Below, piece by piece: positions 1 to 43,706 of a stretch of DNA of 64,000 nt. Position numbers and translations under genes: made by a program. Positions within the stretch are counted from its first letter, which is position 1. Each line of letters begins with the position of its first letter. The DNA lies in assembly GCF_003334385.1 (NCBI RefSeq), contig NZ_QOWN01000011.1. The stretch is one strand, 5' to 3'. A model generated the notes under the pieces. The model worked only from the letters and a program-made list of their open reading frames with translations. It was not told the origin of the DNA and did no database searches. The stretch is from Escherichia coli (GTDB taxonomy: Bacteria; Pseudomonadota; Gammaproteobacteria; Enterobacterales; Enterobacteriaceae).

Positions 1-536
1 GCGCTGTTGGTCGCCAGGTAAAGATGCGGGCTTAACCGGATATCCGGCGGCAGCGCCCCCCACAGCCGCGCCAGCGTATGGCCGTCCGGCTGTGCTGCCT
101 TACCACCGCGCACCAGCCACATTGACTCACTGCGGCTGTACACCGCCTCCCCCGGCAGCAGCGGCTCAAAGTGAATGCTCCGCCCGCCGTTGTCGTTGAG
201 TATCAGTCCGTCATCACGTAGCTGTAAGCGGATATCAGAAGGCGCTTTCCAGCCGGGGCCGAAAACGCCCACCGGTGCAGGCGTCTTCGTCCGGTAGCTG
301 CTGTAGGTGCGGGAGAGAATGAACGGCAGCGGGCCGGGCAGCGCAAGGTCCGTCTCGCCGGGCAGCACCTTCGCCCCCAGCAGCGGATTTACCGGGTTGC
401 CCGAAGTCATCCCGCCCGGACACACCGAGCACGCCACGCCGGTGGGCGCGCCAATTCTTACACCTGCCGAACCCTGGACAATGGGACCGCCATACTGAGT
501 CATATCTCCCTGACGCGCCGCTGGTTTTCCGCTCAT
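1..536 (-). CDS. rhsD: Rhs-family polymorphic toxin protein, N-terminal fragment; gene continues past window start
   Basis: ATG at 534-536 on minus strand; translation MSGKPAARQGDMTQYGGPIVQGSAGVRIGAPTGVACSVCPGG... is a typical Rhs N-terminus (PAAR-like). Frame stays open to position 1, so it is absent from the complete-ORF track. Symbol assigned by position next to ybbP. Confidence 0.8.
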   Translation of the reverse strand, partial: MSGKPAARQGDMTQYGGPIVQGSAGVRIGAPTGVACSVCPGGMTSGNPVNPLLGAKVLPGETDLALPGPLPFILSRTYSSYRTKTPAPVGVFGPGWKAPSDIRLQLRDDGLILNDNGGRSIHFEPLLPGEAVYSRSESMWLVRGGKAAQPDGHTLARLWGALPPDIRLSPHLYLATNS

Positions 537-965
537 ATAAAGTGCCCTTTTAGTTATTGTTCATATCCCTGTGTTAGCAACAAAAAAAATAAAATGACAC
601 ACAAGACCAGCTAATGTATTTATATATTTTTCACATAAACTTATTTGTTCTCAATCAACAACAACTGTTATTACAGGTCACTTTCAATATTTTATTAAAC
701 TAACATTTTTAGCACAGATGAATTCATCATCAACAAATTCACTATATGGATAATATCCATTCAACGCATATGATTTATGATTTTATTAGTCTGAGTTATT
801 TTTGTAGGGCTATATTTAAAATCAATAAACTCCACCGATTCAGATTAATATCAGCAATAGAAAGATAGGAAATCACCAATTCAATAACATCATCAATGAA
901 ACATATTGTAGAATTAATTTAAACAAGGCGTTCCATTCAACCAGAACGCCCCTTATTTACTCTCA

Positions 966-3380
966 TCACCCCGCAAACTGCCTGAACAGCGCCTTACCCT
1001 TAACCAGTCGCGCACCCAGCCAGCCGCCGAAAAGCGACAGCAGCAGCGCTCCGCTGCACGGCAGAACAATCCACAATCGCCAGTCTGGCTCCCACGGAAA
1101 ATCAAACACTTTCGCCTGCAACACTGCCAGCGCCGTTTCCGCACCAATTGCGGCCACCAGGCCGGAAACAAACCCAAGCATGGCGAACTCACACCACAAC
1201 GTGGTACGCAGCAGTTTTTTCCCCGCACCGAGTGTGCGCCACACCACCAGCTCCTGATGACGCTGACGCATTCCCACCTGCACCTGTGCCAGCAACAGCA
1301 ACATACCGCAGGCGGTGACCAGTACCACCATCACTTCCAGCGCCCGACTTACCTGCTCCAGCACCTGACCGACCTGTTTTAAAATCGCGCCAATATCTAA
1401 CAGGCTAATGGTCGGGAACTGGCGGTTGAGTTGTGTCAACATGCCGTTGCCATTCTCCCAGCGGAAACTGGTAAGCCAGCTCTGCGGTTGCCCGTCTAAT
1501 GCCCCTTCAGGGAAAATAAAATAGAAATTAGGCCGCAGACTTTCCCAGTCCACTTTGCGCAGGCTGGTCACTTTAGCGCGGAACTCCTGGGTATCGCCCA
1601 TAAAAGTCACGGTATCACCGAGGGCAACGTTTAAGCGTTTCGCCAGCCCCTCTTCCATCGACACTTCATCGGCTTTTGGCGGCCAGTTACCGGCGACAAT
1701 CGGATTATGATCGGGCCGCGTATTTTGCCAGGTAAGATTGAGTTCGCGGTTAAGCGCCTCATCTTCATTACCTTCTGTCGGCTTATCGTTAATCGCCGTC
1801 AGCCGCGCCCGCACCACCGGATAAAACGATTCCGGGACTATCTGATGTTCCGCAAGGAACGCTTTTAGCGGTGCTACCTGTTCTGTGGCGATGTTAATTA
1901 AAAAGTAGTTCGGGCTTTCTGGAGGTAGCTGCTGCTGCCAGCGGTCGAGCAGATCGCCACGCAACACCAGCAGCAGTGCCAGCAGCATAAAGGAGAGCGA
2001 AAATGCCGAAAGCTGACTTAACGTTGACCACGGCTGACGTAACAGGCGGCTAACCGCCAGGCGCAGAGGCAGCGATTTCAGCGTCATGCGGCGAAGTACA
2101 TTCAGCAGCATCCAGCCCAGCACACCGCACAGCAAAGCCAGTACTACCGCGCCCGCCAGCACCGCCCAAAGCAGCATGCTGCCACCCATTAATCCGGCGA
2201 GCAGCAGCACAACCACCACACTGACAATCGGCAGATAAAACTTCAGCGGCCAGACGTTCGCTACCACATCATTACGTAATACGCGTAAAGGCTGCGTTGC
2301 CAGCAACAAGCGATATGGTCGTAGCCCCACCAGCAGCGAGATGACCGTCATGGTGCCAAGCGCCCACAGCCACGGCCAGAGGCTGGCTGGCGGTAGTGCA
2401 GCAGGCAGAACGGGCTTGAGCAGCACCATCAACACGTTTTCGAACAACAGGCCTATGGCCCCACCGGTAACGGCTGAAAGCGTCAGCACCATCAACCACT
2501 GACCGACGATTAGCTTACGCAGTTGCGCTCGCCCTGCCCCCAGCGTTTTGAGGATCGCCACCAGATCGTAGCGACTGCGACAGTAATGATTCATCGCTAC
2601 CGCCACCGCTGCCACTGCCAGCAGCAAGGTCAGAAGCGCCGAAAGCAGCAGGAACTGTTGCGAGCGTTCCATCGATCGCCCCAGCGCGCCTTCGTCCTGT
2701 TCCAGACCGTACCAGCGTTGTTCGGGTTTAAGCTGAGGTAACAACCATTTCTCATAGCCGTCGAGCTGGTTCTCGTTGCCGCCGAATTTATAACGCCAGG
2801 TGACCCGACTCCCCGGCTGCACGGCTCCGGTTTTATCGACATCCGCCAGATTCATCATCAGACGCGGAGCCATCTGGAAGGGGTTAAAACCGGAATCCGG
2901 TTCCTGAATCACTTCTCCGGCAATCCGCAAGGTGGCATCGCCCACGTCAATGGTGTCGCCCGTTTTCAGGTTAAGCAGTGCCATCAGGCGTGGGGCCAGC
3001 AATACGCTGCCCGCCTGCGGTTTCAGGCCAGGGGGATTAGTTTGCAGATCGCCATACATCGGGTAGATATCATCCACCGCTTTGACGTTCGCCAGCTGCG
3101 GTGTGTCGCCTGCAAAGGTCATTGTGGCGAAAGTCAGCTGCTTGCCGACTTTCAGGCCGCGCTTTTGCGCTTCCTCCAGCCACGCTTGCGGCACTTCGCG
3201 TGAACTGCGCAACGCCCGATCGCCCGCCATAAACTCACGGCTTTGCTGGCTTAAGCCCTTCTCCATGCGATCGCTGATATTGCCCAGCGCCAGCACGCAG
3301 GCCACCGCCAGGCTTAGCGCCAGCCAGACAATTAATAGCGACGGCGAACGCCATTCGCGCCAGAACCAACGTGCAATCAT
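966..3380 (-). CDS. ybbP: ABC transporter permease with two FtsX-type domains (MacB/LolCE-like), 804 aa
   Basis: 804-aa ORF; multiple hydrophobic segments with large extracytoplasmic loops; start overlaps ybbA stop by 4 bp (operon). Confidence 0.9.
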   Translation of the reverse strand: MIARWFWREWRSPSLLIVWLALSLAVACVLALGNISDRMEKGLSQQSREFMAGDRALRSSREVPQAWLEEAQKRGLKVGKQLTFATMTFAGDTPQLANVKAVDDIYPMYGDLQTNPPGLKPQAGSVLLAPRLMALLNLKTGDTIDVGDATLRIAGEVIQEPDSGFNPFQMAPRLMMNLADVDKTGAVQPGSRVTWRYKFGGNENQLDGYEKWLLPQLKPEQRWYGLEQDEGALGRSMERSQQFLLLSALLTLLLAVAAVAVAMNHYCRSRYDLVAILKTLGAGRAQLRKLIVGQWLMVLTLSAVTGGAIGLLFENVLMVLLKPVLPAALPPASLWPWLWALGTMTVISLLVGLRPYRLLLATQPLRVLRNDVVANVWPLKFYLPIVSVVVVLLLAGLMGGSMLLWAVLAGAVVLALLCGVLGWMLLNVLRRMTLKSLPLRLAVSRLLRQPWSTLSQLSAFSLSFMLLALLLVLRGDLLDRWQQQLPPESPNYFLINIATEQVAPLKAFLAEHQIVPESFYPVVRARLTAINDKPTEGNEDEALNRELNLTWQNTRPDHNPIVAGNWPPKADEVSMEEGLAKRLNVALGDTVTFMGDTQEFRAKVTSLRKVDWESLRPNFYFIFPEGALDGQPQSWLTSFRWENGNGMLTQLNRQFPTISLLDIGAILKQVGQVLEQVSRALEVMVVLVTACGMLLLLAQVQVGMRQRHQELVVWRTLGAGKKLLRTTLWCEFAMLGFVSGLVAAIGAETALAVLQAKVFDFPWEPDWRLWIVLPCSGALLLSLFGGWLGARLVKGKALFRQFAG

Positions 3381-39389: not shown

Positions 39390-42542
<3,153 letters not shown>

Positions 42543-42559
42543 TACAACGTGTAATCACT

Positions 42560-42585
42560 AAGGCCGCGTAAGCGGCCTTTTTTAT
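42560..42585 (+). terminator. Rho-independent terminator of acrAB
   Basis: aaggccgc-gtaa-gcggcctt hairpin followed by TTTTTT, 18 bp after the acrB stop. Confidence 0.85.
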
Positions 42586-43087
42586 GCATAACCTACGAAC
42601 ATTAAGGAGTAATTGAACCACCAACTCAGGATCTCATACGAAAACCAGTATTAACCACGGATAAAATTCATAAAAAATACTGATTGTTAGTTAATTTATA
42701 TTAAGTAGCGCTAATAGATTTAATAATCCATAATCATTTAGAGGCTATTCTTAATTATTTGCGGTAATTCTTTATTCATTCCTCGGTTATTACGTCATAT
42801 TCAGAGCAATCCTGGTATTAGTGTCACCAATTTCATCTGGCGATAATCCTGAAATGTTATGAATAGTTCGAGCAAACTGCTTTTACCTGCTGCGGGTTAG
42901 TGCTAGTATGAAAAAGTGAGTCCTGTCCCGCTTCCTTCCTAATTGTAATTTTTCGTAATAATGCGATGAAAACCTGCAAAGAGTGGCTTATAGTTAAGCT
43001 AACAAACGAGAGGGCAAGTCCAGGTCAGTAAGTTTTTTCCATCCCGAAAGGTGTCCGTTAGTTCAACCGCTAAGAAGGGGACGCGTT

Positions 43088-43462
43088 ATGGATGAATACT
43101 CACCCAAAAGACATGATATCGCACAGCTTAAGTTTCTCTGTGAAACCCTGTATCATGACTGCCTTGCAAACCTTGAAGAAAGCAATCATGGCTGGGTAAA
43201 CGACCCAACCTCGGCGATCAACCTCCAGTTGAATGAACTGATTGAGCATATTGCGACCTTCGCACTTAATTACAAAATTAAGTATAATGAAGACAATAAG
43301 CTCATTGAGCAGATCGACGAATATCTGGATGACACCTTTATGTTGTTCAGTAGTTATGGTATTAATATGCAGGATCTTCAGAAATGGCGGAAGTCAGGTA
43401 ATCGACTATTCCGTTGTTTTGTCAATGCGACGAAAGAGAATCCTGCGAGTTTATCTTGTTAG
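43088..43462 (+). CDS. tomB: Hha toxicity modulator TomB (YmoB family), 124 aa
   Basis: Recognised sequence [31 protein letters not shown]; immediately upstream of hha. Confidence 0.92.
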
Positions 43463-43487
43463 AATTATTACAACCATAGGTAGAAGT

Positions 43488-43706
43488 ATGTCCGAAAAAC
43501 CTTTAACGAAAACCGATTATTTAATGCGTTTACGTCGTTGCCAGACAATTGACACGCTGGAGCGTGTTATCGAGAAAAATAAATACGAATTATCAGATAA
43601 TGAACTGGCGGTATTTTACTCAGCCGCAGATCACCGCCTCGCCGAATTGACCATGAATAAACTGTACGACAAGATCCCTTCCTCAGTATGGAAATTTATT
43701 CGCTAA
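43488..43706 (+). CDS. hha: Haemolysin expression modulator Hha (H-NS co-regulator), 72 aa
   Basis: ATG at 43488; [72 protein letters not shown]; embedded in a longer, spurious track ORF 43242..43706. Confidence 0.93.

Follow-up and report, generated by a model that had tools for sequence, protein, structure and literature searches.

Promoter islands are defined as stretches of 300 bp or more in which PlatProm predicts 8 or more start points per 100-bp running window (PMC3661553). Passages of that source describe them as regions that bind RNA polymerase and H-NS and yield near-zero full-length RNA, and as producers of short abortive oligonucleotides. Among the 78 islands of that compilation is "522099_304 ybbP(+)/rhsD(+)", which is flagged as associated with foreign genes and coded 'A', that is, H-NS-bound according to the ChIP studies of Grainger, Oshima and Kahramanoglou, with all four growth-phase lists pooled (Panyukov & Ozoline 2013, PMC3661553). 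The RpoD-holoenzyme SELEX peaks 522060 and 522472 were placed in the same ybbP-rhsD spacer, where the signal overlaps an H-NS genomic SELEX site (Shimada et al. 2014, PMC3946193). In Salmonella, SPI-6 is silenced by H-NS and the full-length rhs within it is silent, the toxin and immunity genes being expressed from internal promoters (PMC7043789). The ybbP-rhsD locus is therefore already known, being named in the promoter-island and SELEX papers, with its behavior in a Δhns mutant contained in published supplementary tables. New here are the boundary of the cassette, the terminator of ybbP, the placement of the Δhns transcription start site (TSS) and its -10 hexamer, the negative results on small RNAs and micro-ORFs, and the compositional nature of the hexamer density.

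The DNA analyzed is a 64,000-nucleotide stretch of E. coli, hereafter the window. A megablast search with positions 400-1100 matched 5420 of the 5426 complete genomes, and the features beneath the matches were annotated as ybbP and as rhsD or "RHS element core protein". Positions 537-965 are the exact spacer between the rhsD start codon (ATG at 536..534, minus strand) and the ybbP stop codon (966-968, minus strand). Translation from this ATG gives MSGKPAARQGDMTQYGG..., and rhsD extends past the left edge of the window. The counterpart in K-12 MG1655 is 522831-523260, the sole difference being a T8 run in the window against T9 in K-12, and the current RefSeq annotation of K-12 holds zero features of any type between ybbP and rhsD. 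We take the offset between the K-12 coordinate versions U00096.2 and U00096.3 to be 776, a value that agrees with SELEX peaks 522060/522472 lying in the spacer and with the U00096.3 coordinates. We conclude that this tract is probably the ybbP terminator followed by the H-NS-silenced promoter and leader of an RhsD cassette, a case of the generic xenogeneic silencing of AT-rich DNA. The features of the tract and its flanks are collected in Table 1.

Table 1. Features of the ybbP-rhsD spacer and its flanks (window coordinates; a dot marks features given without a strand).
Feature	Position	Strand	Basis and remarks
rhsD, 5' part	1..536	-	First 178 codons, PAAR-type N-terminus MSGKPAARQGD...; translation and RefSeq annotation of identical DNA
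rhsD leader (5' UTR, ~198 nt)	537..734	-	Implied by the Δhns-specific TSS; unstructured
Weak Shine-Dalgarno-like AAGGG	545..549	-	8 nt upstream of the rhsD ATG; unchanged across 7 aligned alleles; function inferred
Homopolymer T8 (rhsD sense)	582..589	-	46 nt upstream of the ATG; T9 in K-12, T7 in EC974; alignments
IS1 insertion, strain ETEC1739 (L007)	607..616	.	Target duplication inside the rhsD leader; 10-bp overlap of BLAST pieces flanking an annotated IS1
Promoter island 522099_304 (U00096.2)	619..922	.	PMC3661553 Table 1; mapping to the window approximate
Predicted promoter TTAATA (698..693)-17 nt-TGTAAT (675..670)	670..698	-	Shimada et al. 2014, PMC3946193; under an RpoD-holoenzyme SELEX peak
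A5 run, sense strand	706-710 (feature 706..712)	.	Site of the 1-bp deletion at K-12 523086; overlapped by TTAG at 709-712
Δhns-only TSS	734	-	K-12 U00096.3 523062 (+ there); PMC8894471 Supplementary Data 1, 'Dhns TSS' and 'Dhns pRok', absent from 'WT TSS'
-10 hexamer TATAGT	741..746	-	-12..-7 relative to the Δhns TSS; from sequence; one of the -10-like hexamers counted in the tract; invariant in 7 alleles
ybbP/ybbAP intrinsic terminator (predicted)	915..952	-	11-pair hairpin 952..925, then T-rich tail; terminator scan
RhsD cassette boundary	956..965	.	Homology to other-cassette genomes ends 6-10 nt past the ybbP stop codon; BLAST end points and four-allele alignment
ybbP	966..3380	-	804 aa, ABC-transporter permease; conserved core gene flanking the tract; ORF list and RefSeq annotations

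The spacer has a GC content of 28.4% (71.6% A+T over 429 bp), compared to 65.1% in rhsD (1-536), 57.6% in ybbP and 52.3% in the whole window. It is the GC minimum among all 429-bp stretches of the window; equally low values are reached by 0.013% of such stretches, every one of which overlaps it. The initial annotation, made from sequence alone, had described the tract as far more AT-rich than roughly balanced flanking genes and had proposed a windowed GC scan; the scan bears out the AT-richness, but the flanks are GC-rich rather than balanced. Many A/T runs had also been remarked upon. Nine homopolymer runs of at least 4 nt are indeed present, a count no higher than in dinucleotide shuffles (9.7 ± 2.2), and AA/TT helical phasing (9-12 bp) is non-significant, with 10% of shuffles reaching the value of the tract. 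Since both the runs and the phasing match shuffled sequence, the anomaly is one of composition, with no special A-tract architecture. Apart from the tract, the window falls to 34% GC or lower only at 42578-43006, which is also an AT-rich regulatory spacer; it separates a 1049-aa ORF (39393..42542, +), which we take from its translation to be AcrB, from genes at 43088..43706 (+), on the same grounds presumably tomB-hha.

The tract is carried by 2907 of the 5426 complete E. coli genomes as a single copy (median 1 place per genome), and in every case among the matches listed its neighbors are ybbP and rhsD or an RHS core gene. It lies outside the repeated, GC-rich homology of the Rhs core: the adjacent 5' end of the core occurs in several copies (median 3 places per genome), whereas no paralogous copies of the tract were found upstream of other rhs genes. 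In genomes that do not carry it, homology breaks off at window 956-960. The tract is the upstream edge of a swappable, accessory RhsD cassette. The GC profile of the K-12 island is that of a classical Rhs composite, with a leader of 27-32%, a core of 62-70%, and a toxin tip, immunity gene and orphan fragments of ~30-38%. A first exact-pattern scan of 100,044 species-representative genomes, with probes that detect only near-identical DNA, gave no match to the tract; a second scan of the same 100,044 genomes returned one 20-mer in a 29%-GC Clostridia MAG, which we discarded as a chance match as it had no extended homology.

Two other alleles occupy the interval between ybbP and mnmH. Strain WCHEC020031 (L002, 7296-8006) has in place of RhsD a 711-bp ybbP-mnmH spacer in which PGAP annotates a gene as 'damage-inducible type I toxin DinQ'. 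This spacer also contains a REP-like palindrome, two copies of the terminator-like hairpin ccgactgtcatgtcggttttttt and two copies of the motif gctagatgaggactg, and it resembles a type I toxin-antitoxin locus of the dinQ/agrAB type, here at a second place on the chromosome. It shares nothing with the K-12 island, which argues for alternative cassettes rather than insertion into an empty site. The third cassette, in strains C9 and JKHS006 (L003 and L004, 3080-7841), carries an Hcp-toxin gene annotated tssD, which encodes a 667-aa extended Hcp and is followed by four DUF2931 genes, presumably the immunity genes. The presence of an Hcp-toxin cassette at this site makes ybbP-mnmH a hot spot for interchangeable type VI secretion system (T6SS) toxin cassettes.

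The initial annotation regarded the tract as an H-NS-type silencing target in front of an acquired toxin gene, and proposed that start sites and H-NS occupancy be mapped onto it. This reading is supported by the accessory nature of the cassette and by published functional data, all of which come from K-12, a strain other than that of the window. Published Cappable-seq data give the start site TSS_523062_+ for Δhns and Δhns+pRok cells but not for wild type (Forrest et al. 2022, PMC8894471); by alignment of the window to K-12, this site falls at window 734. The same Cappable-seq list holds no wild-type sense TSS in K-12 522800-523399, and none of its TSSs lies downstream of the promoter TTAATA-17-TGTAAT predicted under the SELEX peak. 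TATAGT is positioned to act as the -10 element of the Δhns start, with no convincing -35 hexamer ahead of it. In RNA-seq of Δhns relative to wild type, rhsD has a log2 fold change of +1.72 (P 1e-7), or ~3.3-fold, and ybbP one of +0.37 (P 0.33, not significant) (PMC8894471). The start site seen only in Δhns cells and the derepression of rhsD but not of ybbP make direct silencing the best reading, and we expect the DNA of the window to behave in the same way in its own strain. In A+T content and in its derepression upon loss of hns, the tract resembles an H-NS-silenced region, and like a promoter island it shows little or no productive transcription in wild-type cells despite RNA-polymerase binding.

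Evidence on occupancy is divided. The compiled ChIP data and the in vitro SELEX place H-NS on the tract (PMC3661553, PMC3946193), as had been anticipated, but the H-NS interval list derived by thresholding the Kahramanoglou ChIP-seq data has nothing between 516915 and 527138 (PMC8894471 Supplementary Data 3); as no interval covers K-12 522831-523260, the rhsD leader is not bound by that threshold. The pooling of four growth-phase lists in the promoter-island study may explain this disagreement. The main text of Grainger 2006 does not mention the ybbP-rhsD locus. The thresholded list does include 527138-529428, which corresponds to the AT-rich rhsD tip, ybbC and the orphan fragments (PMC8894471). 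In the Δhns mutant the downstream immunity gene ybbC has a log2 fold change of +3.21, or ~9-fold, and further Δhns start sites lie inside rhsD at K-12 524411 and 526933 (PMC8894471). The bound interval, the ~9-fold rise of ybbC against ~3.3-fold for rhsD and the two internal start sites together point to internal rhsD promoters.

The strongest competing explanation is an ordinary weak promoter with its 5' UTR, on which H-NS would not act directly: the base composition would be that with which the cassette arrived, and the effects seen in Δhns cells would be indirect, through derepressed regulators or supercoiling. The gap in the thresholded H-NS list is in keeping with this explanation, as is the modest derepression of rhsD, just ~3.3-fold, which could be an indirect effect. 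All five K-12 rhs genes, moreover, have AT-rich upstream spacers that are mutually non-homologous, and the signals within the present spacer are those that its composition predicts. It contains 13 -10-like hexamers (at least 5/6 match to TATAAT), or 3.0 per 100 bp, which is 7 times the window mean (0.43 per 100 bp) and the window maximum; dinucleotide shuffles of the tract contain 13.3 ± 3.4, and the density of promoter-like hexamers is purely compositional. Likewise, a sigma-70 two-hexamer scan returns 2 sites, equal to the shuffle expectation, and the mapped Δhns promoter is not among them. The high-affinity H-NS nucleation motif, TCGATAAATT, reportedly described by Lang and colleagues in 2007, has 2 matches in the tract with 2 mismatches each, compared to 1.4 ± 1.2 in shuffles; neither this motif nor phased A-tracts are obligatory for H-NS binding. 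Against a simple weak promoter stand the H-NS binding recorded in three compiled ChIP studies (PMC3661553) and in the in vitro H-NS SELEX (PMC3946193), the absence of the start site from wild type and its presence in two independent Δhns libraries, and the indifference of the neighboring ybbP to the loss of hns. We therefore regard this explanation as unlikely.

The 40 nt of the tract closest to ybbP, overlooked in the initial annotation, fold into a hairpin (952..925) with an energy of -16.1 kcal/mol (z -2.64; 0 of 200 shuffles as stable). The hairpin begins 14 nt past the ybbP stop codon, on the cassette side of the boundary, and the tail that follows, GTTTAAATTA, is only moderately U-rich. 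Its stem and tail are those of a Rho-independent terminator, and we read it as the predicted intrinsic terminator of ybbAP. The scan finds no terminator elsewhere in the tract, its hits being ybbP's own or ones inside ybbP.

Under the preferred reading of a terminator followed by a silenced promoter and leader, the tract would operate in three parts. The intrinsic terminator would end the ybbAP operon and thereby insulate rhsD from read-through. Beyond it, RNA polymerase would bind ~200 bp of 72% A+T DNA rich in -10-like hexamers, which H-NS would silence. With H-NS present no productive start is detected, and in its absence a single sense promoter (TATAGT at 746..741, start at 734) fires. The resulting transcript would begin with an unstructured leader of ~198 nt, in which a T-run prone to slippage lies at -46 and a weak ribosome-binding site precedes the rhsD ATG. 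A consensus scan also finds an antisense promoter-like TGGATA-16-TATGAT at 747-774 (+), back to back with the sense TATAGT, and initiation from this AT-rich core may possibly be divergent.

A tract of 430 bp with no annotated feature and a leader as long as ~198 nt could instead conceal a functional RNA, be it a small RNA or a cis-regulatory element, or else a translated micro-ORF; the initial annotation had suggested a small RNA and a micro-ORF. The short abortive oligonucleotides that passages of PMC3661553 attribute to promoter islands, and six ORFs of 20-40 codons, would fit such a role. An Rfam scan of positions 300-1300 at E<=1, however, returned no family. The fold of the leader (537..734) does not stand out from shuffles (z -0.45), and ahead of the T-run there is no hairpin (z +1.04) that could serve as a terminator or attenuator. 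The tract contains 12 ORFs of at least 10 codons (shuffles 12.0 ± 2.3) and 6 of at least 20 codons (shuffles 5.2 ± 1.8); the longest has 40 codons, in agreement with the earlier statement that none reaches 60. None of these ORFs is preceded by a Shine-Dalgarno sequence, and an NCBIfam scan gave no match. A 1-bp deletion at ~853, present in three natural strains, shifts the frame of the two longest ORFs, 746..868 (+) and 879..796 (-), and the ORFs at 764 and 760 have their starts upstream of the sole mapped sense TSS. Conservation tests carry little weight here because divergence of the tract within E. coli is merely 0-1.7%. The annotation of K-12, which is heavily curated, is empty here. Nothing supports either a small RNA or a micro-ORF in the tract, and we give very little credence to such a hidden element.

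The leader and its surroundings have received repeated insertions. IS1 has entered the tract at least twice at differing positions, once in the rhsD leader of ETEC1739 and once at window 924 in strain AL.H8 (L006), directly after the ybbP terminator. AL.H8 lacks rhsD, ybbC and the orphan fragments, its toxin cassette having been lost in a deletion associated with IS1. In strain 24AR0357 (L008, 1677-1785), a ~110-bp MITE whose terminal inverted repeats (GGAAGGTGCGAATAAGT...) are of IS5 type is inserted at window 709-712 with a TTAG target duplication. This MITE is found in just 34 of the 5426 genomes, in up to 31 copies per genome and on plasmids too, which suggests a recently active element. 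IS1 prefers AT-rich targets, and YTAR/TTAG is the target of the IS5 family. That the tract serves mainly as a junction for recombination or integration, at which toxin cassettes are swapped between ybbP and mnmH, is extremely improbable. In its favor, allele-specific DNA starts 6-10 nt past the ybbP stop codon, three unrelated cassettes (RhsD, Hcp-toxin and the dinQ-like spacer) occupy the site, and IS1 and MITE landings recur, with IS1 deleting rhsD in one strain. Against it, an unsystematic look saw no integrase or att-like repeat at the junction, the break point is the end of a conserved gene, as under homologous recombination in flanking core genes, and AT-rich target preference explains the transposon landings.

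Both homopolymer runs of the leader (582-589 and 706-710) are mutational hot spots. A phage-resistance lab-evolved clone carries '(T)9->10 intergenic (+385/-46) ybbP/rhsD' (PMC11541549). A 1-bp deletion at K-12 523086, in the A5 run that forms +25..+29 of the Δhns transcript, went to fixation in 4 of 4 replicate K-12 lines that had evolved under selection for migration, and a mutant rebuilt with this deletion was neutral, its growth and migration being unchanged (PMC5441876). All four migration-selected lines had likewise fixed clpX E185* (PMC5441876), and this sharing suggests a pre-existing subclone in the founder. That the two slippage-prone runs form a contingency (phase-variable) switch tuning rhsD expression or H-NS silencing, instead of being neutral hot spots, is, in our view, very unlikely.

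We see in this locus a textbook-style case of E. coli quieting an acquired toxin gene, with little import beyond annotation. Three features can be annotated in the window: the ybbP terminator, the Δhns-only promoter and the cassette boundary (~956-960). K-12 has, to our knowledge, no T6SS; in T6SS-positive strains, such as SE11 with its 100% identical tract, this is the place where rhsD would need unsilencing. It is also a recurrent landing site of IS1 and IS5-type elements.

Compared to described systems, the tract is closest to promoter island 522099_304 of K-12 (Shavkunov et al. 2009; PMC3661553), which is the same DNA one T-run base apart; the published account of the island gives it a high A+T content, many predicted start points, binding of both RNA polymerase and H-NS, poor transcription and a link to foreign genes, and nothing substantive differs. 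Like H-NS-silenced regions (PMC8894471), it is an AT-rich segment beside acquired toxin genes, in which start sites and mRNA appear or rise in Δhns cells; unlike them, its occupancy in the leader is uncalled in one thresholded list. The rhsD core, at 62-70% GC, also departs from typical H-NS-silenced genes, which leaves the short leader and the 3' tip as the only DNA of H-NS type. The likeness to rhs of Salmonella SPI-6 lies in internal rhs promoters and an immunity gene that are derepressed more than the full-length gene. Within K-12, the yibF-rhsA, nikR-rhsB, ybfA-rhsC and yncH-rhsE spacers are also AT-rich relative to the genome (35-37% GC, falling to 21-26% in the lowest 100 bp), and each of the five rhs spacers directly adjoins the same ATGAGCGGAAAACC start of the Rhs core. 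The rhsD spacer, without sequence homology to the others, is more extreme at 28% GC and, at 429 bp, about twice as long as those of rhsA, rhsB and rhsC (202-242 bp), and it alone of them is among the 78 promoter islands (PMC3661553).
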